A stretch of 64,000 nucleotides of DNA from Cytophagales bacterium (GCA_013299115.1 JAAFKA010000014.1:1-64000); one strand, 5' to 3'. Positions 118 through 44,300 are shown, numbered from the stretch's first letter. The notes: generated from the sequence alone by a model not told the origin. Program-made: numbers and translations.

Positions 118-1041
118 TTAATATTTCTGTTTTTTGCGTAATTGCTCTATTTCTTTCACAGTCAAACCTGTCAATTCTGCAATACTTTCATTGTCAAAGC
201 CTTTAGAAATAGCTTTGCTTGCAATTTCAATTTTACCTTCAATTTTACCTTCAATTTTACCTTCAATTTTACCTTCAATTTTACCTTCAATTTTACCTTT
301 TGCTTCTCCCTCTGCTAAACCCTCTTCCTTCGCCTTGCTCACTGCCTTGTCTAACCTTGCCCTTTCATCTTCCTCTCTGATGTAAATGGCATCATACGCA
401 TCTAGTTCGGCTTGCGACCACGTGTATTGGTTGGCATTTTCGTAGGCAGATTTCAAACCTTCATCTTGCACATCATCAGGTATGAAGGTCATGTTTTCTG
501 CATTTTTGATAAAATACACCCACTTCTCAAACAAATTTTGCAATTTGTTGAGTTTTTTCTTGAATTTGGGCAGTTCTATCAATGTAAATTCTACATCTTT
601 GAAAGTCTGCTCTCCTGTTTCTACATCTACTACTTGGCTGCGACTGATGTAGCTTTTGCCTTGTGTGTATTCAAAGTTCAAAATGCCAATGAAATATACA
701 GGTTTCAGTTTACGGTACTGGTCGCCGCGTTTAATTTGGTTGCTGTAGGCTTTGGCAAAATAATACAAAACTCTTTTACCAAACCCATCTTTGTCTGCCA
801 CCTGCATTTCCACAATATACGACCTGCCCGACTGGTCGGTTGCCTTTACGTCCACAATGGTTGCTTTGCCACTTTTCAACTTGGGTAGTTGATAAGGGTT
901 TACAATAGCCACTTCTTTAATCCGTTGCTCTCCTTCAAATTGCAAAGTCGCATTGAGAAAAGAAATCAGGCTTTCTTTGCGGTCTTCACTGCCAAAGATT
1001 TTGTGGAAGGCAACGTCATTTTTTATGTCTGCAAATTTCAT
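118..1041 (-). CDS. Rpn-family recombination-promoting nuclease / putative transposase (PD-(D/E)XK; TIGR01784-like)
   Basis: 307-aa ORF. The N-terminus MKFADIKNDVAFHKIFGSE and overall layout are characteristic of Rpn/YhgA-like proteins. The C-terminal region contains a (GKIE)n repeat. Confidence 0.75.
   Translation of the reverse strand: MKFADIKNDVAFHKIFGSEDRKESLISFLNATLQFEGEQRIKEVAIVNPYQLPKLKSGKATIVDVKATDQSGRSYIVEMQVADKDGFGKRVLYYFAKAYSNQIKRGDQYRKLKPVYFIGILNFEYTQGKSYISRSQVVDVETGEQTFKDVEFTLIELPKFKKKLNKLQNLFEKWVYFIKNAENMTFIPDDVQDEGLKSAYENANQYTWSQAELDAYDAIYIREEDERARLDKAVSKAKEEGLAEGEAKGKIEGKIEGKIEGKIEGKIEGKIEIASKAISKGFDNESIAELTGLTVKEIEQLRKKQKY
222..300. repeat. 12-bp tandem repeat (ttcaattttacc x6) inside the Rpn CDS, encoding (GKIE)n
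   Basis: Direct reading of the sequence. The unit length is a multiple of 3, so copy-number change keeps the frame. Confidence 0.9.
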
Positions 1042-4990: not shown

Positions 4991-4999
4991 ATACCAATC

Positions 5000-5093
5000 A
5001 TGTTAAAACAAGTATTTCAATTCTTTATTTTTTGCTCACTTTGTTTGGGCTTGTATGCCTGTGATATACCTATTTTGTTAATCTTTTTATAAC
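5000..5093 (+). pseudogene. Orphan 5' fragment of the lipoprotein gene (signal peptide only), duplicating the start of 8216..9874
   Basis: Positions 5000-5063 are nearly identical to 8216-8279 (atgttaaaa..ttgtttgggcttgtatgcctgtg, encoding MLK..FQFFIFCSLCLGLYAC). The reading frame stops after about 30 codons. Confidence 0.6.
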
Positions 5094-5107: not shown

Positions 5108-8100
5108 ATGAAACTATTTATCTTGTGTTTTTATTTTCTATTATTTGGCAACTTTTTGGCAGTTGCTCAAAAAATGCAGTCTGATACCACAGCAATTAAT
5201 GGTTTGTTGGTAAAGGCAAATTTCTTTTTTAAAGAAAAGAAATATGATAGTGCAGCTTTTTATTACCAAATAGCAAATCCGATGCTTGCTGATTTGGGTA
5301 ACAAAAAAAATTGGATAGACAAACAAATTTTTTTGGGGCTTTGCTACCTTAATGCCAATCAATGGGAGAAAGCAAGACTGTTTTTTGAAAAAAATTTGCA
5401 ACAAAGTATTGCCAGTTTGGGAGAGGACAATGAATTAACGGCAAAAAATTATTATTATCTTGGCAATAGTTATTGGAAATTGCAAGACACCAAAAACACA
5501 CTTCTCTATTATGAAAAATCCTTAGCTATTAGAGAAAAAGTATTAGGGCTTTGGCATGATGATGTGGCTTTGAGTTATCAAAACTTGGGGGTTGTTTATC
5601 GGAATATGGCAAATTATGAATATGCTATTAAATTTTATTTGAAAGCATTGGCAATACGAGAAAAAACGCAGGGAAGTAAATCGGCTGCTGTGGCTGCCAT
5701 TTACAATAACATAGGCTTGGTTTACAAAGATTGGTCGTCTTTTGAAGAAGCTATTTTGTATTATAACAAGTCTTTGCATATTAAAAAACAGCTTTATGGA
5801 GAAATGCACGTGGAAGTAGCAGGAACTTACAACAATATTGCAGGTATTTATTATCACCGCCAAGATTATGAAAACAGTTTGTTATTTCATACGAAAAGTT
5901 TGCAAATAAGAGAAAAAATATTGCCTCTGCACGACATAGAAATTGGGGCTTCTCTTGAAAATATTGGGCAGGTTTATAGAGCAATGGGCAAGATTAATAA
6001 CTTTTTTGAGGCTCAACACAAGGCTTTGTGGATTACACAAAAAAAATTAGGTTTGGCACATAGATACAATGCTGATGCGTATTTTAATTTAAGTGACGGA
6101 CATTTAGCAAAAAATCAGATAGATAGTGCAAAAATATATGCAGACAAAGCACTGCAAATTTATACAAAACTGTACACCAATAGGCATTATTTTATTGCAG
6201 CAGTTTATTATCAAAAAAGTTTGATAGCCCAAAAAGAACAAAATATTAGTCAGGCACTTGATTTTTGTCAGCAATCTTTGGTAGAAAATATGCCTTATTT
6301 TGATGGTGGTTCTCCCGATAAACACCCAAGGGCAGCAGGTTATGAGGTAAAAATTATGCGGATAAAAGATTTTCAAGAGGCTATGATACTAAAAGGAAAT
6401 CTATTGCTCACGCAATATCAAGCTACCAAAGACGAACAATATTTGTACATTGGTTTTCGACATTACCTTGTTTTCGACAGCATTGCACAAAGGTTATTGC
6501 CAAATTTTACGAATGAAAACGAAAAATTGTACTTTAATCGCAACATGGCAGAGGCATATAAGGGTGCAGTAGCCACTTGTTTTGTTTTGTCCGCAATTCG
6601 TCACAAAAACTTTTATGCAGAAAAAGGCTTTTATTTCTCTGAAAAAAGCAAAAGTGCAGTGCTAAGTGCTGCCTTAGCTAACACAAAAGCTAAAAAATAC
6701 GCACAAATTCCCGACAGTTTGATACAAAAAGAAAGAATTTTGAATAGTTTGATGGCAAAAACAGATGAAAAAATACTCATTGAGCAAATTGCAGCCAAAG
6801 ATGCAGATAAAATAGACTCCTTACACAATGAATTTTTTGAACTCAAAAAATCTCATAATGAATTGATTGCATCTTTTGAAAAAAATTATCCAGCTTATTT
6901 TAACGCCAAATATGATGTAACAACGGCAAGTATAGCAGAAATAAGTCGTAGTTTGGACAAAAATACAGCCTTGATTAGCTACACAATAGCCGATACTTGC
7001 CTCTACGTATTCACAATTACCAAAAATAATTCTCAATTTGCAAGAGTAACCAAATCACCTTATTTTGATACACAAATAAAAACTTTGCTCAATGCAATTT
7101 ACTACCAAGTCGGCAGTTTGTATGTAAAAAGTGCCTACATACTCCAACAGCAATTAATGCCCACCAATTTGCCAAACAGAATAAAAAATATTATTTTTAT
7201 TACTGAAGGTTCACTCTTAAAATTACCATTTGAAGCCTTGCTAAGTAAACCATTTACAAAAAAAATTGCTTCACTTGACTATACAAAATTACCTTATTTG
7301 GTCAAAGGTTTTGCAATTTCTTATCATTATTCAGCCAATTTATTCTTTCAAAATCTGCAAAGCAAAACAGCCAATCCTTATAAAGAAAGTTATGTAGCTT
7401 TTGCACCCATTTTTACAGAGGAAAGTGAAACAAATTTTCTTACCAAAGGTTGCGAAAGGGCTTTTTATGCCAACGATGAGCTATATGCAAAAGACAGCTT
7501 GAACAAAGCAGATTTTTTGAAAGACTTAGCACCAACAGTTTTAGCGGAGATAAAAAATGCTAACAAAGAAACAAGTCGGGCATTTACTCGAAGTGGAAAA
7601 TTTATTGCAGCCATACCAAAAACCAAAGACGAAGTAGAAAATATTAGCAAATTGCACAAGGATAAAAACCTTTTTTCTAAATATTACCTATTCAAAGATG
7701 CAAAAGAGGAAGTTATCAAGTCGGGTGAGTTAAAAAATTACACCTATATTCATTTTGCCACACATGGTTTTGTGAACGAAAGCCTGCCTGAATTATCAGG
7801 CTTGTTGCTTGCCCAAGACAGTCTAAGCAAAGAAGATGGTGTATTGTATGTGGGTGAAATTTACAATTTAGATATTTCACAAGCCGAATTAGTAACCCTT
7901 TCTGCCTGCGAAACAGGCTTAGGCAAAATAACTTCTGGCGAAGGTGTATTAGGGATTTCAAGGGCATTTTTGTATGCAGGAGCAAAAAATCTTGTTGTCA
8001 GTTTATGGAAAGTTGCAGATAGTTCGGCATCTGAACTGATGTTAGCATTTTATAACAACCTGCTAAATGACAAAGAAAAAAAGAAAAACAAGAGTTTGCA

Positions 8101-8182
8101 AGATGCCAAATTGCTTATTTTGAAAAATAAAACCTTCTCAAAACCTTATTATTGGTCACCTTTTATTTTGATAGGAAAGTAA
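5108..8182 (+). CDS. TPR-repeat protein with a C-terminal CHAT (caspase-like) protease domain and an N-terminal signal peptide
   Basis: 1024 aa. Multiple TPR motifs (YYxxAL/IxE-type repeats). The C-terminal part carries His/Cys dyad motifs, HFATHG ... LSACETG, typical of CHAT. Confidence 0.75.
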   Translation: MKLFILCFYFLLFGNFLAVAQKMQSDTTAINGLLVKANFFFKEKKYDSAAFYYQIANPMLADLGNKKNWIDKQIFLGLCYLNANQWEKARLFFEKNLQQSIASLGEDNELTAKNYYYLGNSYWKLQDTKNTLLYYEKSLAIREKVLGLWHDDVALSYQNLGVVYRNMANYEYAIKFYLKALAIREKTQGSKSAAVAAIYNNIGLVYKDWSSFEEAILYYNKSLHIKKQLYGEMHVEVAGTYNNIAGIYYHRQDYENSLLFHTKSLQIREKILPLHDIEIGASLENIGQVYRAMGKINNFFEAQHKALWITQKKLGLAHRYNADAYFNLSDGHLAKNQIDSAKIYADKALQIYTKLYTNRHYFIAAVYYQKSLIAQKEQNISQALDFCQQSLVENMPYFDGGSPDKHPRAAGYEVKIMRIKDFQEAMILKGNLLLTQYQATKDEQYLYIGFRHYLVFDSIAQRLLPNFTNENEKLYFNRNMAEAYKGAVATCFVLSAIRHKNFYAEKGFYFSEKSKSAVLSAALANTKAKKYAQIPDSLIQKERILNSLMAKTDEKILIEQIAAKDADKIDSLHNEFFELKKSHNELIASFEKNYPAYFNAKYDVTTASIAEISRSLDKNTALISYTIADTCLYVFTITKNNSQFARVTKSPYFDTQIKTLLNAIYYQVGSLYVKSAYILQQQLMPTNLPNRIKNIIFITEGSLLKLPFEALLSKPFTKKIASLDYTKLPYLVKGFAISYHYSANLFFQNLQSKTANPYKESYVAFAPIFTEESETNFLTKGCERAFYANDELYAKDSLNKADFLKDLAPTVLAEIKNANKETSRAFTRSGKFIAAIPKTKDEVENISKLHKDKNLFSKYYLFKDAKEEVIKSGELKNYTYIHFATHGFVNESLPELSGLLLAQDSLSKEDGVLYVGEIYNLDISQAELVTLSACETGLGKITSGEGVLGISRAFLYAGAKNLVVSLWKVADSSASELMLAFYNNLLNDKEKKKNKSLQDAKLLILKNKTFSKPYYWSPFILIGK

Positions 8183-8215
8183 GGACTATCAATTTAGAAA
8201 ATTATATCCCCAACC

Positions 8216-9874
8216 ATGTTAAAAAAACTATTTCAATTCTTTATTTTTTGCTCACTTTGTTTGGGCTTGTATGCCTGTGCCAACCAAGCAGCAGGAGGTC
8301 CCGCAGGTGGATTAAAAGACATTCGCAAGCCACGTATTCGGTTTTCTTCGCCCAAAAATCAGGCTTTGTATGTAAGGGGCAACCAAATAATCATACAATT
8401 TGACGAGGCAGTGAAGTTAAAAAATATCAAAAGCAATTTGCGAATCATACCCAATACGGACAATGACTATGACTATGTGCAGAAAAAAAACAAATTGACC
8501 TTAACTTTCAAAAAAGTTTTTGCTTCTAACACTACCTATGTTTTGGTTTTTGATGACGTAATAGAAGACGTAAACGAGAGCAACAAAGCTACCAATATGC
8601 GGTTGGCTTTCAGCACAGGAGGGCAGATAGATTCGTTTCGGGTCAGCGGCGTGGTGCGTGATTTGCTTACCAACAAACCTGAACAAGAGGCTACCGTCAT
8701 GTTGTATGATGCCTTAGATACCTTTAAGGTCGAAAAACACAAACCTCTCTACTATGCCAAAACAGACACCATTGGCAGGTACTCCATCAGCAACATCAGA
8801 GAAGGCAGCTATTTGATTTATGCTTTGAAAGAGGACAAAAAGAAAAATTTGGTTTATGATGACTACAAAGAAAAGATTGGTTTTCAGGCAGATACCTTGC
8901 AAATAAATGCACAAACCCTACCTTTTGCCGACCTCAAAACCTTGTCTTACGATTTCAGACCTTTTAAAACTACGACCAAAAGACCACGCAAACAATACTA
9001 CGAGGTAAAGGCAAACAAGGCAATTAAAGAATTTAGCGTACAGTTTGCCGACAGCACTTGGCAACAAAAAATTTTGGCTGCCCCCGAAAACGAAACTTTG
9101 CGGTTTTATAATTTGAGTGAAAACCAAGCTACGGATACTTTGGTGGCTTACCTTACCCTCAAAGATTCGGTTTTGGCAGTTGCATACGATACAATCAAAG
9201 TAAAATTTGACGACATCAAGGAAAAAGACAAAGAAAAAAAGAAAACCAAATTGGAAATTAAGGTTACTCCGCAAAGCAACTCGAAGTTTATAGCCAAAGA
9301 ACAATTTACTGTTCGTTTTACTTCCAATTTGCCTTTGGTTTCTTTTGTGGCAGATAGTTTTTTGTTGGCAATAGACAAAGATACCATTCCGCTAAAAACC
9401 GAAGATTTTAAATTAGCTCCCAACGGACTTAGTTTAGAAGTGCTAAAACCTCTACAATTTAAGGAAAATATGAAATTGGTTTACAAGAAAAAGGCATTTG
9501 TGGCAGTGGAAAAAGATACCTCCGCAGCAGGAGAAGTGAGTTATGGTATCAAAAAAGAGGAGGATTTTGCTACGCTGACGGGCATAGTAAAAGTGAAGGC
9601 AGAAAACTTTATTTTGCAACTCATAGGCAATGGCAATGCAGTGGAGCAAGAGCAAAAAAATGCGAGGGATTTTGTGTTCAAATATGTAAACCCAGGTAAA
9701 AAATCTTTTAGAGTGTTAATAGACACCAACAACAACGGCAAATGGGACGCAGGTGATGCCAAAAAAGGAATACCTGCCGAAAAAATTTACTTTTACGACA
9801 CCCCCGATTTGGCTAAAACTGCCCCGAATTGGTTGTATGAAGACATTATAGTGGAGGTAAAAGAGGAGTTTTAA
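8216..9874 (+). CDS. hypothetical lipoprotein (552 aa)
   Basis: Signal peptide with lipobox LGLYAC. No family recognised. Confidence 0.55.
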   Translation: MLKKLFQFFIFCSLCLGLYACANQAAGGPAGGLKDIRKPRIRFSSPKNQALYVRGNQIIIQFDEAVKLKNIKSNLRIIPNTDNDYDYVQKKNKLTLTFKKVFASNTTYVLVFDDVIEDVNESNKATNMRLAFSTGGQIDSFRVSGVVRDLLTNKPEQEATVMLYDALDTFKVEKHKPLYYAKTDTIGRYSISNIREGSYLIYALKEDKKKNLVYDDYKEKIGFQADTLQINAQTLPFADLKTLSYDFRPFKTTTKRPRKQYYEVKANKAIKEFSVQFADSTWQQKILAAPENETLRFYNLSENQATDTLVAYLTLKDSVLAVAYDTIKVKFDDIKEKDKEKKKTKLEIKVTPQSNSKFIAKEQFTVRFTSNLPLVSFVADSFLLAIDKDTIPLKTEDFKLAPNGLSLEVLKPLQFKENMKLVYKKKAFVAVEKDTSAAGEVSYGIKKEEDFATLTGIVKVKAENFILQLIGNGNAVEQEQKNARDFVFKYVNPGKKSFRVLIDTNNNGKWDAGDAKKGIPAEKIYFYDTPDLAKTAPNWLYEDIIVEVKEEF

Positions 9875-13998: not shown

Positions 13999-15153
13999 AT
14001 GTTTCGTTTGTTATTCATTAGCTTGTTGTTGGGTTTTACTTTCCCAATGACTGCCCAAGATACAGATACTATTCCGACAGGGAAAATACCACCAATGGCT
14101 GCGCCTCAAATGACTTACGAGGAATTGATGGCTGTTTTTGAGCCACTGAAAAACATACCCGAAGGGGCTTCAATTCGCCAGATGCAGGAGCAAGAAAAAA
14201 AATTGCGCGAGTTGAGAGATAAGGCAAATTATTTGGTCAAATATATGGTCGACCCTATCAAGAAAAAAATGGCAGAAAACCGAAAAATGGAAAAAGAGGC
14301 TGTCAATCAACAGAAAAAACTCAACGAGGCTAATGCAGCCAAAGACGAAGCCGAAAAAGAAGCTGCAGCTGAAAGGGAAATGGCAATTCAAGAAAAACAA
14401 GCTGCCTTAGATGCCCTCAAAAATAGCAAACGCAAAAGAGATAAAGCTTTGTTCAACAAAATGAGTTCAGACTCGGTGCCAGCCCAAGAAGAATCGACTG
14501 AAATATCAAGCGGAGATGCCGTGGCTGATAGCACCAAAGCTGCGTGGGGCAAGGTAGAAGCTGCCGAAAAGGAATTGGACGAAATGCGAAAAAAATTAGC
14601 TCCTGTCGAAAAATTATCTAATATTATTCGAACTGCATGGGCAAAATTAGATACCCGACTCCAAACTGAAACCGATAAAGCTGGGGCTGATGCCATTAAA
14701 AGTTTCGAAACCTTGACTTTGGAACAAGTCTATGACCCTGTTACGAAACAAGTAAACCAAACTACGATTGACTTTTATAAAGAAAACTTGTTTTATAGTA
14801 ACAAGCCTTATACGATAAACTGCAAAAGTGGTGTGGGGGCTAACTTATTTAAAGACCTCGACCAAATCACAGGAACTACCAACAAAACTGCCACCGAAGG
14901 ACTAAGCAAGGAGGAACAAGCTGCCCAAAAGAAAGCAGCCGAAGACGAAAAAAAGAAAAACGCCAAAGAAAATATCAAACAAAAACAGCAAGGGTGCATA
15001 GGTTATGTAAGTTCGTTGAATAAAAACGAATTTTATAACCTCGTCGTTATCAAACTAACCGATGGTACTGTCAAAGCTATTTTGTGGGGCAAAAATAATG
15101 AAAAAAGACCCATAGATACCGAATACAAGCAAGGAGCTGTGAAGGTTTGGTAG
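13999..15153 (+). CDS. hypothetical secreted K/E-rich coiled-coil protein
   Basis: Signal peptide followed by long charged-helix regions. Confidence 0.5.
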   Translation: MFRLLFISLLLGFTFPMTAQDTDTIPTGKIPPMAAPQMTYEELMAVFEPLKNIPEGASIRQMQEQEKKLRELRDKANYLVKYMVDPIKKKMAENRKMEKEAVNQQKKLNEANAAKDEAEKEAAAEREMAIQEKQAALDALKNSKRKRDKALFNKMSSDSVPAQEESTEISSGDAVADSTKAAWGKVEAAEKELDEMRKKLAPVEKLSNIIRTAWAKLDTRLQTETDKAGADAIKSFETLTLEQVYDPVTKQVNQTTIDFYKENLFYSNKPYTINCKSGVGANLFKDLDQITGTTNKTATEGLSKEEQAAQKKAAEDEKKKNAKENIKQKQQGCIGYVSSLNKNEFYNLVVIKLTDGTVKAILWGKNNEKRPIDTEYKQGAVKVW

Positions 15154-15164
15154 TTTTAATTTTT

Positions 15165-15284
15165 ATAGAGGTTATTACGATTTGTACCGTACTCTTTGGC
15201 GGGGGTTGCCTCCAACTGCAGGGTCAATTAGTTGAAAATCAAGAAGTTATTTTTCTATACAAAAATTATCGTAATAACCTCTAC
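15165..15284. mobile_element. MITE-like element, copy 1 (~118 bp with 16-bp terminal inverted repeats tagaggttattacgat)
   Basis: About 95% identical to 18024-18137. The termini are perfect inverted repeats. It sits directly after a stop codon between convergent genes. Confidence 0.6.
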
Positions 15285-15324
15285 TTGATGTTCACTTTTT
15301 CAATTCAATCTTCAACCTTCAAAA

Positions 15325-16869
15325 TTATTTCTTTTTCCTACTTCGATAATAAATTTTGGTTAGGTAAAAGATTTCCTTGTATTCTATGCCTTTCTGGACA
15401 TCAAAAGTTTTCAGGCGTTGCATACCAGAAGCAATAAAATAATCTTCATACCACGTCTGCACTTCAGGATTTACCTCGTCTATTGGTTTTGCCTCTGTAA
15501 ATAAAGTATCTGTTTTGCTTTGGTCTATGTTTTCAGTGGGCAAACTATTGGCTGTTTTTTGTGCTAAAAAATATTCATCATCAACCTGCAATAGTGTAAG
15601 GCTATCACCTCGCATAGCCCAATGAGCTTGGGGTTGGAGGCTGTAACTGTCCCTGTCTTTGTAGGTAAAAGTATTATCCCATAGTAAGTTACCTGTTTTA
15701 TCGAAAGCAACAGCTACAAAATTTTGATATTTGTAAATATAAGAAAAATTATTTCTGCCACCTATTGCGGTTAAATTTGGGCGGCGGGTATTGGTAGTAG
15801 GCAAACCTGCAAAACTGGGATTGGCTACGCTGCTATTTTGCACAGTTGCCCGCAGGTAGCTGTCGCCAAAGAGCAGCAATTTATCTACTCTTTCTATCAA
15901 AGGACTTACCAAGAAATTATGGTCGAAACTATAAACCTTGCCTTTTTGCCGTTTTTTGTTTATTTTTTCAAATAATTTTTCTTTTCGAGTAGTTGGCAAA
16001 TAATTAAACACATTTCGGTAGTTGCTAAAATCATAAAATTTGATGTTTTCTATTGCCGATTCACTGCAACGAGCCACATAAAAACCTTGTGCAGCATCAC
16101 TGCCTTTTTTGGCATAAGTTCCAAATAGTAATTGTTCAGTAGCCGACAAGATGTATGGTCTAAAAGTCAATAAACCGTATTGTTTGTCAGGTAAAGTTGC
16201 CCATTTGCTCAACAAATGCCCATCTAAGGTGTAGTTTTGCACAAATAAATTAGGTTGGTTACTTTTTGAGGTAGTGAGCAACACACTTACACAGGTTTGG
16301 TCTTTGCTAAATGTAATTTCTTGCAACGAGGCTTTCAAGGTATTAATTTGGGGCAATACTTTGGGTTTTTTGTCCTGTTCGTAGGCAAACCACAAAATAG
16401 CAGGTCGGCTGTTGATTTCGCCACCAATAAAAAGCACCTTATTAAGTACCTTAAAATGAGTAATCTCTAATGGAATAATATCTTCTATTTCTATGATTCG
16501 GGCATTGCCTGTTGCCAATTCTACTTCTGCAATCTCGAAAGCTGTACTCTTTTTTTCTATTAGCAAATATAGAAACGTAGCATCATGGGTATATAACTTC
16601 AGTATATGTTCGTACTTCAAAAGCACTTGACTCTCCCATAGTTTTTGGAGTGTAGTGTCATATTTTACAATTTGTATAGCTCTTTTGTTGCCTTTCAACA
16701 AATCTTGACTTTCCAATAAGGTAATAACGCCTGATTCTTGCAAAGGCAATACATGATAATTGCTGCCATGTTTTGTATCTATTAGCTGCTCTATTTGCTG
16801 TGCAGGCACAATTTGACCTAAAATAGGTGAAAAAATACAACTAAATAGGATAAATAAAAGTAGTTTCAT
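15325..16869 (-). CDS. hypothetical secreted protein (514 aa)
   Basis: Signal peptide. No family recognised. Confidence 0.5.
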   Translation of the reverse strand: MKLLLFILFSCIFSPILGQIVPAQQIEQLIDTKHGSNYHVLPLQESGVITLLESQDLLKGNKRAIQIVKYDTTLQKLWESQVLLKYEHILKLYTHDATFLYLLIEKKSTAFEIAEVELATGNARIIEIEDIIPLEITHFKVLNKVLFIGGEINSRPAILWFAYEQDKKPKVLPQINTLKASLQEITFSKDQTCVSVLLTTSKSNQPNLFVQNYTLDGHLLSKWATLPDKQYGLLTFRPYILSATEQLLFGTYAKKGSDAAQGFYVARCSESAIENIKFYDFSNYRNVFNYLPTTRKEKLFEKINKKRQKGKVYSFDHNFLVSPLIERVDKLLLFGDSYLRATVQNSSVANPSFAGLPTTNTRRPNLTAIGGRNNFSYIYKYQNFVAVAFDKTGNLLWDNTFTYKDRDSYSLQPQAHWAMRGDSLTLLQVDDEYFLAQKTANSLPTENIDQSKTDTLFTEAKPIDEVNPEVQTWYEDYFIASGMQRLKTFDVQKGIEYKEIFYLTKIYYRSRKKK

Positions 16870-17071
16870 ATCATTGTTTCAATAAACTTCCATAATGATT
16901 TGGACTCAAAGATAGACATTTTTTTATAAAAACACCCAAATAAGTGGGTCATTAATTAGAGGAGAATTTGGCATTAAATCTTATCTTAAAATAAAAAACA
17001 ACAAGATACAAGGTTTTCAGATTCAAAAACTTATTTTTGTAGCTACAATTACGCACTTAGCTTAGTACGAT

Positions 17072-18010
17072 ATGAAAAAAGTGTTGATTACAGGGGCAGC
17101 AGGATTTTTGGGTTCTCACCTCTGCGACAGATTTATAAAAGAAGGTTATTATGTGATTGGCATGGACAATCTCATTACAGGCAATATGGACAACATAGCC
17201 CATCTGATGCCCTTGCCAACCTTTGAGTTTTATCACCATGACGTAACCAAATATGTGCATATACCGGGCGAATTGCACTATATTTTGCACTTTGCCTCAC
17301 CTGCCAGCCCTATTGATTATCTCAAAAAACCTATTCAGACTTTAAAAGTAGGCTCTTTAGGCACGCACAATTTGTTGGGGCTTGCTCTTGCCAAAAAAGC
17401 ACGTATTTTGGTGGCTTCTACTTCCGAAATTTATGGCGACCCTAATGTACACCCACAATCGGAGGAATATTGGGGCAATGTAAACTGTGTAGGTCCAAGA
17501 GGTGTGTATGACGAAGCCAAAAGGTTTCAGGAGGCTATTACGATGGCGTATCACAACATACACCATGTAGAAACTCGTATTGTCAGGATTTTTAACACCT
17601 ATGGTCCTCGTATGCGACTTGATGATGGCAGAGCATTGCCAGCTTTCATGAGTCAAGCCCTCGAAGGTAAAGACATTACAGTTTTTGGCGATGGCAGTCA
17701 AACAAGGTCTTTTTGCTACGTGGCAGATTTAGTCGATGGCATTTACAGGCTGTTGTTGAGTGATTATGCTTTGCCTATGAATGTGGGCAACCCTGTGGAA
17801 ATCACTATTAAACAATTTGCCGAAGAAATCATAGCTTTGACAGGTACAGACCAAAAAATAGTCTATAAACCTTTGCCCCAAGACGACCCCAAACAGCGTT
17901 GTCCTGATATAACAAAGGCAAAATCTATTTTAGGTTGGCAGCCCAAAGTGGATAGGGCAGAAGGTTTGCGAATTACCTACCAATATTTTAAAGAAAAATT
18001 AGGCAAATAA
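17072..18010 (+). CDS. UDP-glucuronate decarboxylase (UDP-xylose synthase), SDR family
   Basis: [10 protein letters not shown] Rossmann motif. The protein is UXS-like over its whole 312-aa length. Confidence 0.8.
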
Positions 18011-18023
18011 TCTAAAATACTGG

Positions 18024-18137
18024 GGTTATTACGATTTGTACTGTACCCTTTGGCGGGGGTTGCCTCCAACTGCAGGGTCAATTAGTTGAAAATCAAGAAG
18101 TTATTTTTCTATACAAAAATTATCGTAATAACCTCTA
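18024..18137. mobile_element. MITE-like element, copy 2
   Basis: Same element as 15165-15284, again directly downstream of a stop codon between convergent genes. Confidence 0.6.
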
Positions 18138-18147
18138 TTACTCAAAT

Positions 18148-19296
18148 TTACTTTCTGCTTGCTATTTTTGCCAACGACTTTAAAAACGGAAATGGTGGAA
18201 CAGACCACATAATTTGGAGGTCTATACTAAAATGAGTTTGGTTGTCTAAAAAGTACAAAACATTTTCTATTGGATTGTTTTTGAATAAATCGGCAAAAAT
18301 TTGGCTGATACTTCCCCCGTTGCGTTGCATAATGTCTAAAAGCATGGCATCATATAATTTGAAATGCTTGTCGAAAGATTGTTTGTAAAAAGGCTGTCTT
18401 GTGGTGGCAAGGGCATGAACTGTGGCTGCCGAGTCTCGTTGAATGTTGAGAAAAGTGTAGCCCGTTGAGGGTTTTGATTGTCCGCCAGCTATTCCCATTC
18501 GTTTTATTCGGTTGCCTGCTTTGGCTTGAAAATTAAAATCTGTCATTGGAATTACGCCAAATTCTTCTTCTAAGATTTGAAACTGCTTGATTTTCAGCGT
18601 ATTTTGTATGTAGTCGTTTAAAATCGTCAAGTAGTCTGTTTCATTGGCAAAAACTTGTTTGCCAAAAATAGTAAACTCTACTAAGGCTTCGGTAGGCGAA
18701 TAAGGCAAAGTATAGACAAATCTCACTTCGCCCTGTTGCGGTTGCCTGAAATCAAACATAGTTATTTTGGAGGTGTCGAAATAAGGTTGCTGCGTTTGGA
18801 TTACGTAGCCCTTAAAGTGCTGCAAAATCAGGTGCGGTGCTTTGCTATACGTGGCAGGACTAAGCCGAGAGTCAAACACAAAATCGGCAGTGAAGGTTTG
18901 CGTAGTGGTTTGTACGGTTGCCTGCTGGTCGGTTTCGATTACAGCCACCACCGAGTCGTAATGAAATTGGAAGTTTGGAAACTGTTTGAGTTGGGTATGC
19001 ACCTCTTTGTAAAAATCTATGCCCCTGATGGTTTGGTAACGAAGTTTTTGTAGCGGATAAACAGCGTGGTAGGTATCAAAAAAAAACTCTACTGCCTTCC
19101 ATTCTCTATATACAATAGAGTTGAACAGCGTAGGTTGGTCTGTCCAGAAACACCAAGTTCTGTCGTTAGTATTTTTTGGAGTTTTGTCTATTATCAAAAC
19201 TTTTTTGTCTGCTAATTGGCTCTTACTCAAATGATAAGCTAAACTTAGCCCCGCACAGCCGCCACCTGTTAAAATATAATCGAAATGAGTTTGCAA
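18148..19296 (-). CDS. lycopene cyclase family protein (CrtY-type, FAD-binding)
   Basis: N-terminal FDYILTGGGCAGLSLA dinucleotide-binding motif, with length and sequence consistent with lycopene beta-cyclases. Confidence 0.7.
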   Translation of the reverse strand: MQTHFDYILTGGGCAGLSLAYHLSKSQLADKKVLIIDKTPKNTNDRTWCFWTDQPTLFNSIVYREWKAVEFFFDTYHAVYPLQKLRYQTIRGIDFYKEVHTQLKQFPNFQFHYDSVVAVIETDQQATVQTTTQTFTADFVFDSRLSPATYSKAPHLILQHFKGYVIQTQQPYFDTSKITMFDFRQPQQGEVRFVYTLPYSPTEALVEFTIFGKQVFANETDYLTILNDYIQNTLKIKQFQILEEEFGVIPMTDFNFQAKAGNRIKRMGIAGGQSKPSTGYTFLNIQRDSAATVHALATTRQPFYKQSFDKHFKLYDAMLLDIMQRNGGSISQIFADLFKNNPIENVLYFLDNQTHFSIDLQIMWSVPPFPFLKSLAKIASRK

Positions 19297-29740: not shown

Positions 29741-29775
29741 TCCCCTTTCCAAAAGCCATTTACCTTTTGGAAAGG
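29741..29775. terminator. Terminator-like hairpin (ccctttccaaaag / cttttggaaaggg) followed by a T-rich tract
   Basis: 13-bp stem with a 9-nt loop. Confidence 0.3.
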
Positions 29776-30428
29776 GCTTTTATTTCCCTAACAAAGCCTC
29801 TATTTCTTGTTTTAATTTTGGCAAATGTTTGATGACAACAGCCCAAGTATCAAGCAGGTATTTCTGTTCTTTTTCGGTCATAAACTAGCTGTTTAGTACG
29901 GTTTACGGACTGTTCAAAATAATAATTCTTAAATGGTCTGTTTCTCAACACATCTACTTTTCGTTTAAAAAGCTAAATCTTTCTCAAAAGGTTTGATAGG
30001 TAAAGGCAAATTGGAGTTAAACATTGGCTGTATTGTTAATTTTTGCTACTACAAATTTACACTAAAAAACTACATTTTTTGCAAACCCACCCAAAATTTC
30101 CTATCTTTGTTTTAGACTAAATTTTATGTTTGCACTAATTATTGTAACTTGGCTAATAAAATCATAAAGCTATGCGCGTAACCCAAAATATAGAAGCCCA
30201 AAAATTGTGGCTCATTCAACAACTTTTATTGGTGCAAGCTATGGTTGCAAACCCTGCCAATAGTTATTTTGATGCGAATTTGGAATTTTTATAGTTGTTG
30301 TTTTGTTTTGGACTCTGCAAGGTAGTCTAAAAAAGTAAAAAATTGATTAGTACTCCAAAGGCACTAAGTTCACAAAGAAAAATTTAAAATTTGCAGATTC
30401 AAAACTAAAAATTCAACATTAGAAAAAA

Positions 30429-37330: not shown

Positions 37331-39595
37331 ATGTCCAAATCAGTATTCTTACTTATACTATGCTGTTTCATTGCTATTTATAGCCACGCCCAAAATAAAA
37401 AAATTCTGGATAGTTTGACTGTTGTCTATCAAAATACAACCTCGGATACTTCCAAAATTCTCATACTGTTGCAAATAGCCTTTGAATATAAGCGAAGCAA
37501 CCCCGATACTTGCATTGCCCTTGCCCAAAAAGCCTTAAATTTGAGTGAAAAAGCAAAATATGAGCATGGAAAAGGAGAAAGTTATCATCATTTGGGTTTG
37601 GGGCATGACTATAAAAATGCTTACCCAATGGCTTTGGACTACTTCCAAAAAAGTTTGGCTATCAAAACAAGGTTAAAAGATAAACAAGGTGCTTCCAAAA
37701 GTCTGAACAATATTGGCATTATTTACGACATACAGGGCAATTATCCGTTGGCGTTGGCGTATTTCCAAAAAAGCCTGAAAATGCGGGAGGAATTAGGCGA
37801 CAAAGTGTTGATTGCAGCAAGTTTAAACAATATTGGGGGCATTTATGATATGTTGGGTAACTATCCGTTGGCGTTGGAGTATCACCAAAAAAGCCTGAAA
37901 CTGAAAGAGGAACTGCACGACCTACGGGGAATTGCTATTAGTTTTAACAACATTGGCAGCATTTATGAAATTCAAAGAAAATATGCCATTGCCTTAACTT
38001 ATTACAAAAAAAGCCTGAAAATAAAAGAACAACAGGGGGACAAACAAGGAATTTCGGCAAGTCTAAACAATATTGGAGGCATTTATGACCTGCAAGGCAA
38101 CTATGATTTGGCTTTGGAATATCACCAAAAAAGCCTACAACTCAAAGAGGAACTAAACGACAGGCTGGGGCTTACACACAGTTTCAACAGTTTGGCACAG
38201 GTCTATCAAAAGCAAAAAGACTACAACAAAAGCATAGCGTATGCCCAAAAAGGCTTAGAAATAGCCCAAAAAATAGAAGCTTTGGCAGAAATTCAGGCAA
38301 TTAGCCAAACTTTATACACAACTTGTAAACTAAAAGGTGATTATGCACAGGCTTTGCAATATCACGAACTATACAAAACAGCTAACGATAGCCTTTTTAG
38401 TGTAGAAAAAAATACTGCAATAGAGAGTTTGGAAGCAAAAACAAACATAGAACGGAAGGAGAAAGAAATTGCAATTCTGAATAAAAATCAAGAAATTTTA
38501 GAAACTGCCAAAACTTTTCAGCAACGTATCAATTATTTGGTGCTGGCGGCTTTGGGGGCTGTATTGGTGTTGGCTTATTTTATCTACCGCAGTCGCCAGC
38601 AAGAGAAAACCGCAAAAGAGGAAACCCAGCAGATAAACGAGGAACTGCGGACTATTTTGCTTACCGTCAATGAACAAAAAGACAAAATAGAACAGACTTT
38701 GGCGATTGTCAATAGCCAAAAAACTATTATTGAGCAAAAAAATGAGAATATTATTGCCTCTATCAATTATGCCTTGCGGATACAAAACGCCATTATTCCC
38801 AAAGAAACAGAGTTGCAAAAACACTTAGACTGTTTTGTGTTTTTCCGCCCTCTGGATATTGTAAGCGGAGATTTTTATTGGTTTGCAGAGAAAGAAAACA
38901 CCAAAATCTTAGTCGTTGGCGACTGCACAGGGCATGGCGTATCGGGTGCTTTTATGACCATGATTGCCAATGATTTGCTCAACCAAATTGTCCAGAACTA
39001 CGAAATTCACCAGCCCGATGTCATACTCAACCAAATGCAGGTGCTGCTACACAAGGTTTTTGCGGTTTCTGAACAGGAAATAGCCGATGGAATGGATATG
39101 GCTGTCATTGTTATCCAAACCTTACAAGGTCTTGAAGACCTTGTAAGGTTTAGGGTAGCCTATTCGGGTGCAAAAATACCCCTGTATTGGGCAACCACCA
39201 ACAGAGAAACCCAACAGACTGAACTGCACGAAATCAAGGCAGACCGAATAGCACTGACGGGAGGGCAGCAAAACGTGGCACACCAATATACGTTGCATAC
39301 ACTTGGCTATCAGGCAGTTAGGGCAGATACAGACAACGAAAATTTTGTTACCATGCCCCAAAACGCCGAAGTAAATTTTTATCTCTGTTCTGATGGCTAT
39401 CAAGACCAATTTGGGTCAGAAACTAAGAAAAAGTTGCTCTCTGCCAATCTCAAAAAAATATTGTTGGAGGCTGCTCCCTTGCCAATAGCACAACAAAAAA
39501 TGATGGTAAGTGAAAAATTTTATGAGTGGAAAAGAGATTACAAACAAATAGATGATGTGTTGGTGGTGGGGGTGAAGCTGCAAGTTTCCCATTAG
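37331..39595 (+). CDS. TPR-repeat sensor with a TM helix and a C-terminal PP2C/SpoIIE-type serine phosphatase domain
   Basis: N-terminal TPR array paralogous to the 41030 gene, followed by a coiled coil, a TM segment and then SGDFYWF...VGDCTGHGVSGAFMTM, the SpoIIE/PP2C signature. Confidence 0.8.
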   Translation: MSKSVFLLILCCFIAIYSHAQNKKILDSLTVVYQNTTSDTSKILILLQIAFEYKRSNPDTCIALAQKALNLSEKAKYEHGKGESYHHLGLGHDYKNAYPMALDYFQKSLAIKTRLKDKQGASKSLNNIGIIYDIQGNYPLALAYFQKSLKMREELGDKVLIAASLNNIGGIYDMLGNYPLALEYHQKSLKLKEELHDLRGIAISFNNIGSIYEIQRKYAIALTYYKKSLKIKEQQGDKQGISASLNNIGGIYDLQGNYDLALEYHQKSLQLKEELNDRLGLTHSFNSLAQVYQKQKDYNKSIAYAQKGLEIAQKIEALAEIQAISQTLYTTCKLKGDYAQALQYHELYKTANDSLFSVEKNTAIESLEAKTNIERKEKEIAILNKNQEILETAKTFQQRINYLVLAALGAVLVLAYFIYRSRQQEKTAKEETQQINEELRTILLTVNEQKDKIEQTLAIVNSQKTIIEQKNENIIASINYALRIQNAIIPKETELQKHLDCFVFFRPLDIVSGDFYWFAEKENTKILVVGDCTGHGVSGAFMTMIANDLLNQIVQNYEIHQPDVILNQMQVLLHKVFAVSEQEIADGMDMAVIVIQTLQGLEDLVRFRVAYSGAKIPLYWATTNRETQQTELHEIKADRIALTGGQQNVAHQYTLHTLGYQAVRADTDNENFVTMPQNAEVNFYLCSDGYQDQFGSETKKKLLSANLKKILLEAAPLPIAQQKMMVSEKFYEWKRDYKQIDDVLVVGVKLQVSH

Positions 39596-39640: not shown

Positions 39641-39934
39641 TTGCAAACTACTATTTCTCTCCATAATTTTAGTGTATTCTCTGATGCTACTAAATTCGTG
39701 CAAATCGGAGTTGCGGACACAGGCGTAGGCATGAGTGCCGAACAGATGGGCAAACTGTTCAAACAAGCCACTTCTTTTACAACCTACGGCACCAGTGGCG
39801 AAAAAGGTACAGGCTTAGGCTTGCTATTCTGCCAAGAAATGGCGGAGAAAAACGGAGGCAAAATTTGGGTGGAAAGTGAGCAAGGCAGAGGCACTACGTT
39901 TTGGTTTACGGTGGCAATAAAGTTAGCAAGTTAG
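39641..39934 (+). pseudogene. Orphan duplicate of the 3' end (HATPase_c G1/G2 boxes) of the TPR histidine-kinase gene
   Basis: 39677-39934 is about 98% identical at the nucleotide level to 43703-43960. It encodes only DTGVGM...GTGLGL...FWFTV, without HisKA or N-box. Confidence 0.75.
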
Positions 39935-41029: not shown

Positions 41030-43963
41030 TTGAAAAAGCTAATTCTTGTATTTTTTTTGCTTTTTGCAGCCACAAGTAACTTTTGCTTTGCCCAAAACAA
41101 AAAAGTAATAGACAGCCTTACACAAGTCTATCACAACGCCAAGCACGACACAATAAAAGTATTGGCTCTTACTTCTATTGCCTACGAGTACAGAAGAAAT
41201 AAGCCAGATACTTGTATTTCCATTGCTGAAAAAGCCCTGCAAATAAGTGAAAAAATACAGTATCGCAAAGGGCAAGGCAATAGTTATCATCACATAGGTT
41301 TAGGCTATTATAATAAGAGTGCTTACCCTTTGGCATTGGAATATTACCAAAAAAGCTTGAAAATACGAGAAGAAATAGGGGATAAACAAGGTATAGGAAG
41401 TAGTTTCAATGCCATAGGGCTTATTTACAATAATCAAGGCAATTACCCTTTGGCTTTGGAATATCACCAAAAAAGTCTGAAAATAGAGAGAGAAATAGGC
41501 AATAAGCAAGGCATAGCCATTAGTTTGAATAACATAGGCAATATTTATGATAATCAAGGCAATTACCCTTTGGCTTTGGAATATCACCAACAAAGTCTGA
41601 AAATAGCGGAAGAAATAGGCAATAAACAAGGTATAGCCAGTAGTTTGAATAACATAGGCAATATTTATGATAGTCAAGGCAATTATCCATTGGCTTTGGA
41701 ATATTACCAAAAAGGTATGAAAATAGAGGGAGAAATAGGCAATAAAAAAGGCATAGCCAGTAGTTTGCATAACATAGGGATTATTTACAAAAATCAAGGC
41801 AATTATCCTTTGGCTTTGGAATATTACCAAAAAAGTATGAAAATAGAGGGAGAAATAGGCAATAAAAAAGGCATAGCCAGTAGTTTGCATAACATAGGGA
41901 TTATTTACAAAAATCAAGGCAATTATCCTTTGGCATTAGAATATTTCCAAAAAAGCCTAAAAATAAAGGAAGAAATAGGGGATAAACAAGGCATAGCCAA
42001 TAGTTTGAATAACATAGGACTTATTTACGATGATCAAGGTAATTATCCTTTGGCATTGGAATATTACCAAAAAAGCCTAAAAATAAAGAAAGAAATAGGG
42101 AATAAACAAGGCATATCCATTAGTTTGAGTAACATAGGGAGTATTTACAAAAATCAAGGCAATTATCCTTTGGCATTAGAATATTATCAAAAAAGCCTGA
42201 AAATAGAAGAAGCAATAGGAGATAAAAAAGGCATAGCTGGTAGTTTGAGTAACATAGGCAATATTTATGATAGTCAAGGCAATTACACTTTGGCTTTGGA
42301 ATATTACCAAAAAAGCCTGAAAATAACAGAAGAAATAGGCGATAAATTGGGAACTACCTATTCCCTGTGTGGAATTGCCCAAGTAGCCCAAAAACAAAAA
42401 GACTATGATAAAAGCATAGATTATGCACAAAAAAGCCTAAAAATTGCCCAAGAAATAAAAGCCTCCGCAGAAATCAAAAGTGCAAGCGAAGTCCTTTACA
42501 ATAGCTATAAACTCAAAGGCGACTATGTGAAAGCCCTTGAATACCACGAACTATTTAAGGCAACGAATGATAGTATTTTCAATATAGACAAAGCAAAGAA
42601 AATAGCTAATTTGGAAGCAACTGCGGAGATAGAAAAAAAGTCAAAAGAAATAGAGATTTTGAATAAAAACAAGGAATTATCCCAAAAAGAAAAAGAGGTG
42701 TTGGAAAAAGATTTGAAACTCCAAAGTACAGAGGCAGAAAGGCAGCGAAATGCTAATTTGGTGCTTGAAAAACAAGCAGAAGCAGATAAATTATTCAACC
42801 TTGCTCGGCAAGAAAAAGACAAACGAAAAGCAGACAGCCTGAATAACCTTGCCCAGTATCACCAACTGCAAGCTGATAACCTAAAAGCAAAAGAAAAACA
42901 GCTGCAAGCCGAAAATAAAGCCCAAAAAATAGAGTCTATCAAAGAAAAAGAAGCAAAGGAATTTCAACAATATATTACCTATTTGGTATTGGTGGGGCTT
43001 TTTTCTGTTGTAGTTTTTGCTTATTTTATTTTTATTTCTCGCAAAAAAGTTCAAAAAGCATACGAACAATTAGAAGTTTCTAAAATCAAAATTCAAGAAA
43101 CCAATCAGCATTTGACATTGGCAAACGAGGAGATTTCGCAACAGAAAGAGGAAATTGTGCAACAAGCCGACAACCTCCAAGCTGTAAATCAGACCAAAGA
43201 CAAGCTTTTTGCCATCATAGGGCATGACCTCCGCAACCCTGTGGCTTCGCTAAAAGGAATGTTGGACTTGGTGGTTTCGCAAGACATTAGCCAAGAGGAA
43301 TTTGCAGAATATGCACCCAAACTTGCCGAAAACGTAGAAAATATGCACTTTACGCTAAACAATTTGCTGTCGTGGGCAAACAGCCAACTGCAAGGCATAG
43401 CCAACAAACCCCAAAATATTAACCTCCACGAATTGGCACAAGAAAACTGCAATCTACTCAAAGAAATAGCCGCTCAAAAAGGTATTAATTTGGCGAATGA
43501 ACTACCAAACAACTTGCAAGGCTACGCAGACCAGCAGCAGATTAACCTCATTTTCAGAAACTTAATTGGCAATGCCCTAAAATTTACGCCCGCAGGTGGA
43601 AGTGTGAAAGTGGTTTTAGAAAATAGAACTAACATTTCTCAAAGAAATGTTAGTTCTGAACAATTTAGTAGCATCAGAGATGACATCTTTCAAAAAGATG
43701 TCATCTCTGATGCTACTAAATTCGTGCAAATTGGAATTGCGGACACAGGCGTAGGCATGAGTGCCGAACAGATGGGCAAACTGTTCAAACAAGCCACTTC
43801 TTTTACGACCTACGGCACCAGTGGCGAAAAAGGTACAGGCTTAGGCTTGCTACTCTGCCAAGAAATGGCGGAGAAAAACGGAGGCAAAATTTGGGTGGAA
43901 AGTGAGCAAGGCAGAGGCACTACGTTTTGGTTTACGGTGGGAGTAAGGTTAGTAAATTTTTAG
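41030..43963 (+). CDS. TPR-repeat sensor histidine kinase (signal peptide, ~10 TPR units, TM helix, coiled coil, HisKA, HATPase_c)
   Basis: H-box IIGHDLRNP, N-box NLIGNALKFT, G1 DTGVGM, G2 GTGLGL. Confidence 0.85.
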   Translation: MKKLILVFFLLFAATSNFCFAQNKKVIDSLTQVYHNAKHDTIKVLALTSIAYEYRRNKPDTCISIAEKALQISEKIQYRKGQGNSYHHIGLGYYNKSAYPLALEYYQKSLKIREEIGDKQGIGSSFNAIGLIYNNQGNYPLALEYHQKSLKIEREIGNKQGIAISLNNIGNIYDNQGNYPLALEYHQQSLKIAEEIGNKQGIASSLNNIGNIYDSQGNYPLALEYYQKGMKIEGEIGNKKGIASSLHNIGIIYKNQGNYPLALEYYQKSMKIEGEIGNKKGIASSLHNIGIIYKNQGNYPLALEYFQKSLKIKEEIGDKQGIANSLNNIGLIYDDQGNYPLALEYYQKSLKIKKEIGNKQGISISLSNIGSIYKNQGNYPLALEYYQKSLKIEEAIGDKKGIAGSLSNIGNIYDSQGNYTLALEYYQKSLKITEEIGDKLGTTYSLCGIAQVAQKQKDYDKSIDYAQKSLKIAQEIKASAEIKSASEVLYNSYKLKGDYVKALEYHELFKATNDSIFNIDKAKKIANLEATAEIEKKSKEIEILNKNKELSQKEKEVLEKDLKLQSTEAERQRNANLVLEKQAEADKLFNLARQEKDKRKADSLNNLAQYHQLQADNLKAKEKQLQAENKAQKIESIKEKEAKEFQQYITYLVLVGLFSVVVFAYFIFISRKKVQKAYEQLEVSKIKIQETNQHLTLANEEISQQKEEIVQQADNLQAVNQTKDKLFAIIGHDLRNPVASLKGMLDLVVSQDISQEEFAEYAPKLAENVENMHFTLNNLLSWANSQLQGIANKPQNINLHELAQENCNLLKEIAAQKGINLANELPNNLQGYADQQQINLIFRNLIGNALKFTPAGGSVKVVLENRTNISQRNVSSEQFSSIRDDIFQKDVISDATKFVQIGIADTGVGMSAEQMGKLFKQATSFTTYGTSGEKGTGLGLLLCQEMAEKNGGKIWVESEQGRGTTFWFTVGVRLVNF
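41300..42360. repeat. Near-identical 120-bp tandem repeats inside the CDS (TPR units)
   Basis: For example, 41701-41820 and 41821-41940 are essentially identical. Many units share more than 85% identity. Confidence 0.9.
43624..43717. repeat. Two consecutive palindromes embedded in-frame in the HK ATP-lid region
   Basis: agaactaacatttct-caaag-aaatgttagttct (43624-43656) and the perfect 24-bp-arm palindrome tagtagcatcagagatgacatcttt-caaa-aagatgtcatctctgatgctacta (43665-43717). Together they encode about 30 extra residues between the N-box and G1. Confidence 0.85.
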
Positions 43964-44242: not shown

Positions 44243-44300
44243 GGAAGTCCAAGCATTGCTTTTGTGGCACTACCAATTTGCGAAGCCTATTTTACCACCC

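Follow-up and report, generated by a model that had tools for sequence, protein, structure and literature searches.

MITEs are elements of about 50–1000 bp that have neither a transposase gene nor coding capacity. Correia elements of Neisseria and RUP of Streptococcus pneumoniae are TA-duplicating MITEs, and the Tourist MITEs of plants are mobilised by PIF/Harbinger. Elements of these three types are about 100–150 bp long, have terminal inverted repeats (TIRs), insert at a TA or TWA target, occupy intergenic positions, are mobilised in trans and often affect neighbouring transcripts. Correia elements and RUP belong with other transposase families and are present in tens to hundreds of copies. 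In Bacteroidota, Porphyromonas gingivalis has several IS5-type MITEs (BrickBuilt, MITE239, MITE464/PgRS and MITE700), whose TIRs equal those of IS5-family insertion sequences (ISs), whose interiors are unrelated and whose target-site duplications (TSDs) are variable or unclear; there are typically 10–20 copies per genome (PMC4596501). Amoebophilus asiaticus, a Cytophagales symbiont, carries ISCaa6, a single-ORF element of the IS5/ISL2 group with a length of 991 bp (PMC3196728).

In the 64-kb stretch of DNA that we analysed (the window), region reading and a repeat finder identified two direct copies, in the same orientation, of a 118-bp non-coding element (Table 1). The copies are spaced ~2.9 kb apart and both lie inside 3 kb. 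Over the full 118 nt they were identical at 113 positions (about 96%), in line with the value of about 95% given in the first-pass annotation. Within the core (15170–15283 compared with 18024–18137), 112 of 114 positions were identical (98%), with the two SNPs at 15188/18042 and 15193/18047. Because of this 98% identity, the two copies look recent. When the copies were aligned base by base together with their flanks, the flanking sequences were unrelated and homology stopped exactly at the TIR tips. Each copy had also been described as beginning and ending with a TIR. This was correct for copy 1, in which a perfect 16-nt inverted repeat (16/16) marks both boundaries, but only partly so for copy 2, which has a perfect right TIR and a damaged left end. 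The left arm of copy 2 begins CTGGGG and differs at three positions, all within the outermost 4 nt. Judging from this degenerate TIR, copy 2 is probably no longer mobilisable. When up to three mismatches were allowed, the TIR 16-mer occurred six times in the window, compared with 0.32 expected, and the element ends accounted for four of the six. No third copy was detected within the 64-kb window, even in a low-stringency search.

Table 1. Positions of the candidate MITE copies, their neighbouring genes and related elements. Positions without a contig handle refer to the window.
Feature	Position	Strand	Remarks
PD-(D/E)XK 'transposase' family gene	118–1041		Unrelated to the IS5-like transposase family
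384-aa gene, no Pfam match	13999–15153	+	Stop codon 12 nt before copy 1
Candidate MITE copy 1, intact	15166–15283		118 bp; repeat finder and alignment
Left TIR, copy 1	15166–15181	+	TAGAGGTTATTACGAT
Right TIR, copy 1	15268–15283	-	ATCGTAATAACCTCTA; perfect reverse complement of left TIR
514-aa gene convergent on copy 1, without Pfam match	15325–16869	-	Stop 41 nt past copy 1
NAD-dependent sugar epimerase/dehydratase gene	17072–18010	+	Stop 9 nt before copy 2
Candidate MITE copy 2	18020–18137		Orientation as copy 1; left terminus degenerate
Left TIR, copy 2, degenerate	18020–18035	+	CTGGGGTTATTACGAT; 13/16
Right TIR, copy 2, perfect	18122–18137	-	
Lycopene cyclase gene, convergent	18148–19296	-	Stop 10 nt past copy 2
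IS5-like element, Cesiribacter sp. SM1	L008 4709–5713		1005 bp
IS5-like elements, Cytophagales MAG YX2bin28	L025 4871–5875; L033 465–1471; L050 5766–6771		
IS5-like elements, Sphingobacteriales MAG JANPIL01	L024 2265–3249 (near-complete)		Six contigs ending 95–141 nt inside the repeat
Putative sister MITE, Cytophagales MAG bin37	L020 3100–3213		114 bp
Putative sister MITE, metagenome contig	L060 55–130		76 bp

The pattern TAGAGGTTATTACGATWW was scanned against 185,579 species-representative genomes (GTDB; 596 Gb). The scan returned 49 stretches, compared with the ~70 that we estimate chance would give for a pattern equivalent to 17 nt in a database of this size, and most of the 49 were singletons within unrelated genes. 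Ten of them, in three Bacteroidota genomes, were the termini of a repeated ~1005-bp element. The left TIR of copy 1 was identical to the terminus of this element in L008, L025, L033, L050, L024 and others. Each ~1005-bp element encodes a single protein of 295–303 aa with matches to DDE_Tnp_4 (E 2e-28) and HTH_Tnp_4 (E 6e-9) in Pfam, and its single-ORF architecture resembles that of ISCaa6. On the basis of this protein, we place the elements among the IS5-family/PIF-Harbinger-like ISs, at family level only because their NCBIfam transpos_IS5_4 score (72 bits) falls below the cut-off of 140. The transposases of the three IS-bearing genomes are 36–48% identical to one another, and the 16-nt terminus is conserved even between proteins this divergent. 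The transposase stop codon falls within the TIR. On plasmids of Fulvitalea and Chondrinema, more distantly related elements (about 42% identity) have ends of the type A(A/T)GGTTATCACGAAT preceded by TA. In the ~1005-bp ISs, the 'perfect' end is found on the transposase-3′ side only and the other end is imperfect (TAGACATTAGTACGAT, TAGACCTTATTACGAT or TAAAGGTGATTACGAT), whereas both ends of the window element, as seen in copy 1, are the 'perfect' version.

The window element shares with the ISs of Cesiribacter sp. SM1, YX2bin28 and JANPIL01 this 16-nt terminus and a TA on both sides, but it is only 118 bp long, has no transposase ORF and has nothing in common with them beyond the 16–22 terminal nt. 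Comparison of its interior with the available IS interiors gave no similarity past these terminal nucleotides, and a full-length IS with subterminal sequence matching the interior was not found in the genomes scanned. A tblastn search with the IS transposase detected no transposase of the matching IS5-like family in the 64-kb window. The first-pass annotation had proposed an element that is MITE-like, lacks a transposase nearby and would be mobilised in trans, and had suggested a search for a full-length IS with matching TIRs. This reading of the element is well supported by the identical 16-nt ends of ~1-kb IS5-like ISs in three other genomes and by a window that contains no transposase of the matching family, the 'transposase' family gene at 118–1041 being of the unrelated PD-(D/E)XK type.

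Copy 1, in common with every IS or MITE copy that we saw, has TA on both sides, and there is no longer duplication outside. The two dinucleotides of copy 1 lie at 15166–15167 and 15282–15283, and at the left end of copy 2 the TA is replaced by CT, alongside one further change. The TA may represent either the outermost bases of the TIR or a 2-bp TSD around elements of the form GAGG...CCTC. Relatives in the IS5/PIF-Harbinger group are reported to generate duplications of 0, 2 (TA) or 3 bp (PMC12730594), and the TA...TA flanks would fit a 2-bp duplication of TA.

Two other miniature elements have termini of the same type. The one in Cytophagales MAG bin37 runs from TAGACATTATTACGAT to ATCGTAATAACCTCTA, and the other is on a metagenome contig (L020 and L060 in Table 1, respectively). 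Both are flanked by TA...TA and match the terminus at 16/16 positions at one end and at 14/16 or 12/16 at the other, and the interiors of both are unrelated to that of the window element. The bin37 element is in the same size class as the window element, with equivalent termini and TA...TA flanks, and differs from it in the interior. Since the two elements share ends and differ in interior, this IS group has spawned MITEs more than once. From the same comparison, we regard them as sister MITE families of one IS group; they are not further copies of the window element.

The MITEs of P. gingivalis are likewise found in Bacteroidota and likewise have IS5-family TIRs around an unrelated interior, as is normal for MITEs of this kind. 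They differ from the window element in their TIR (GAGACCTTTGCA), in their larger size and in the minisatellites that some of them contain. The P. gingivalis elements share their genome with the parent ISs, and presence/absence polymorphism has been documented for them, whereas the window element is known from 64 kb alone. Correia, RUP and Tourist elements have no sequence relationship to it.

Because its ends exactly equal those of ~1-kb IS5-type ISs in related bacteria, the window element is most likely an ordinary miniature transposon and not a special regulatory device. It is 118 bp long, has no transposase or coding capacity and is bounded by TIRs that match autonomous ISs in three other genomes. 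It is probably a non-autonomous IS5-type MITE that would be mobilised in trans, insert at TA and be tolerated in convergent spacers. We infer that mobilisation occurred in trans, that TA was duplicated and that insertion was neutral, as follows. The 16-nt TIRs would be the sole functional parts of the 118-bp non-coding element, corresponding to the recognition and cleavage ends of ~1-kb IS5-family (DDE_Tnp_4/PIF-Harbinger-like) ISs. An IS of this kind, either at another place in the genome or since lost, would supply the transposase that binds the two ends and excises the element, which would then insert into AT-rich DNA at a TA, with duplication of the TA. Both copies would have survived in short convergent intergenic spacers because insertion there is presumably harmless. 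The element would then represent a previously undescribed MITE family of a Cytophagales lineage, and its ends would tie it to an IS5-like IS group that is widespread in Bacteroidota. This is mainly a point of annotation and raises no new biological question, as IS5-type MITEs are already documented in this phylum (PMC4596501).

The position of the two copies raises the alternative that the MITE has been exapted, with its TIR hairpin acting as a bidirectional terminator or RNA-stabilising 3′ structure for two convergent gene pairs, which we consider unlikely. Both copies do lie directly after the stop codon of a + strand gene and between convergent genes, as first annotated. The distance from stop codon to element is 9–12 nt for both copies, in the same orientation, and the element takes up 118 of the 171 nt of the convergent spacer at copy 1 and 118 of 137 nt at copy 2, an arrangement consistent with a role at the 3′ ends of these genes. 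The shared orientation and position may be accidental (p about 0.5 for the orientation) or may point to a function. Also in keeping with exaptation, the predicted transcript fold was more stable than that of shuffled sequences on both strands (z of -3.7 and -5.1), but this stability is a trivial consequence of the TIRs. A consensus scan found no hairpin-plus-T-run site overlapping 15166–15283 or 18020–18137 on either strand, and therefore no GC-rich stem followed by a T-run in either copy; for the region as a whole, it returned 15 sites compared with 11.2 ± 3.5 in shuffles, about the shuffle expectation. The TIR stem encloses an 86-nt interior, unlike the stems of intrinsic terminators, and the sequence downstream is not T-rich. 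In copy 2, three of the 16 stem pairs are lost. With only two copies that are 98% identical, there is no covariation and no sign of selection, and insertions of transposons should in any case survive in spacers between convergent genes. One weak promoter-like match was present at copy 1 (15294–15265).

No second hairpin was found within either spacer, whereas in relatives (L070, L072 and L073) a short hairpin of the ordinary kind, and not MITE sequence, comes after the orthologous epimerase gene. This difference would suit a stricter form of exaptation, in which the MITE has replaced ordinary hairpins as the sole 3′-end structure of both gene pairs and its orientation and 9–12-nt distance are not accidental; we regard this, too, as improbable. 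Since the relatives have ordinary hairpins at this position, the element is not a conserved terminator of the epimerase gene. Domestication of the copies as terminators is thus unsupported, given the hairpins of the relatives, the recent look of the copies and the absence of overlapping hairpin-plus-T-run sites. The epimerase relatives yielded no orthologous empty site, none of the 95–96% identical cluster members being syntenic.

The low copy number bears on another alternative, that the element is an immobile structured repeat of the host (REP-like or a small RNA gene) that recombination or gene conversion copied locally and whose likeness to IS ends is a coincidence. Only two copies were seen, which have the same orientation and lie 2.9 kb from each other, with no unambiguous TSD, and searches of GTDB species genomes, JGI metagenome contigs, IMG/VR and, by blastn, PLSDB found no further copy of the exact element; beyond the IS termini, the remaining matches were single and of TIR length, in about the number expected by chance. 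These features are what an immobile repeat would give, but it is not reasonable to attribute to chance that both ends, in inverted orientation, match exactly over 16 nt the termini of ISs that carry a transposase in three other genomes from this phylum. In addition, if a segment had simply been duplicated, the repeat would not stop right at the TIR tips between unrelated flanks. The element has no Rfam family either: a search of Rfam 15 gave no match at gathering score across the whole window and none at E ≤ 1 in 15100–15350. We therefore consider an immobile repeat very unlikely. The 40-aa open frame that runs through the element had no homologue in a protein database search intended to pick up spurious ORF calls over other copies as well, and one of the two core SNPs is non-synonymous in this frame. 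Least probable of all is that the copies are remnants of two full-length ISs that were independently deleted in situ, and not a transposed pre-formed MITE: element ends equal to IS ends would be expected and IS decay through internal deletion is common, but independent deletions would not yield the same 86-nt interior and breakpoints (98%), which effectively refutes this origin, and no similarity between the interior and the available ISs could be detected.

As an IS5-type MITE present more than once, the element also explains the short-read assembly breaks at both spacers. In several runs, all Logan short-read contigs stopped inside the elements, at 15194/15196, 15254, 18053 and 18111/18113, as expected because the sequence is repeated, and no Logan contig crossed either site without the element. 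At k = 31, the two copies alone would allow contigs to extend 30 nt past the last SNP that tells the copies apart, to 15223 and 18077. Stops before this point, at 15194 and 18053, give a weak hint of further copies, to be read against break positions that vary by 2 nt between runs and against the ends at 18111/18113, which reach unique flank, in one set by 5 nt.

From its protein relationships, the host is a Cytophagales bacterium, and several of the IS carriers belong to the same order. The 514-aa protein encoded next to copy 1 has its best named relative in Thermoflexibacter, and its nearest homologue is 57% identical and not syntenic. The DNA polymerase I of the window (44256–47183) shares 81% identity with the next metagenomic protein and 62–63% with those of Thermoflexibacter ruber and Rhodoflexus.

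The 16-nt terminus TAGAGGTTATTACGAT is identical among the insertion sequences (ISs) of Cesiribacter sp. SM1 (L008), the Cytophagales MAG YX2bin28 (L025, L033 and L050) and the Sphingobacteriales MAG JANPIL01 (L024, near-complete), and is matched exactly by window 15166-15181, the left terminal inverted repeat (TIR) of the first MITE copy. The transposases of the ISs with this identical terminus share merely 36-48% identity, and the last codon and stop codon of the transposase overlap only the inner 7 nt of the 16. Outside the ends, 13 nt beyond the left TIR are common to the L025 and L050 ISs. Similarly, three IS copies in JANPIL01 (L006, L011 and L016) are alike immediately beyond the TIR, with GGGTTTGGGGTTTTTGGAAGATAC-like flanks that suggest either a target preference or insertion into another repeated element. 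The PD-(D/E)XK gene at the start of the window has no relation to the MITE ends.

Other genes and repeats in the window
Feature	Position	Strand	Identity or support	Remark
PD-(D/E)XK nuclease-family 'transposase', Rpn/YhgA-like	118-1041	-	PF12784, E 2e-53	
70-nt repeat	4994-5063; 8210-8279		96%	
132-nt direct repeat	20947-21078; 24783-24914		98%	borders a 3.7-kb segment
894-aa protein, MVP_shoulder and vault repeat domains	24858-27542	+	Pfam MVP_shoulder, E 2e-30; Vault_3	
260-nt direct repeat	39673-39932; 43699-43958		96%	
~12 tandem 78-nt (26-aa) repeats	56150-57220			inside 688-aa S4/pseudouridine synthase ORF 56066-58132
Three tandem 72-nt units	63376-63591		100%, 100%, 82%	

Positions 1-130 and 929-1058 are repeated at 99%, the latter being the 5′ region of the PD-(D/E)XK ORF. 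The match suggests that a second copy of the gene adjoins this one and is cut by the window edge.

The segment between the 132-nt repeats holds an ORF of 205 aa along with the gene for a ParA-like P-loop protein of 979 aa. A short-read Logan contig (L061) has the same arrangement as the window, whereas in another (L062, run SRR9948934) position 21078 is joined straight to 24783 without the segment, reflecting either a presence/absence polymorphism or assembler collapse. Immediately after this variable segment comes the gene for the 894-aa protein, which by its domains is a vault protein homologue, of a kind typical of eukaryotes, in a Cytophagales genome. The 2.9 kb at 27543-30428, where a 73-nt sequence occurs twice (at 28073 and at 29475, 78%), have no ORF >126 aa and gave no Rfam match.

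The second copy of the 260-nt repeat forms the 3′ end of a TPR-histidine kinase gene (41030-43963), and the first, downstream of a TPR-SpoIIE gene (37331-39595), may be a gene fragment or a recombination scar. The 70-nt repeat spans the start and upstream region of adjoining genes encoding a CHAT/TPR protein (5108-8182) and a Big_5 protein (8216-9874), and looks like a 5′ leader or signal-peptide module common to both. The 26-aa repeats constitute a long repetitive N-terminal extension of the pseudouridine synthase ORF. The 72-nt units immediately follow a glycogen branching enzyme gene (61221-63371), and Logan contigs also break at them.
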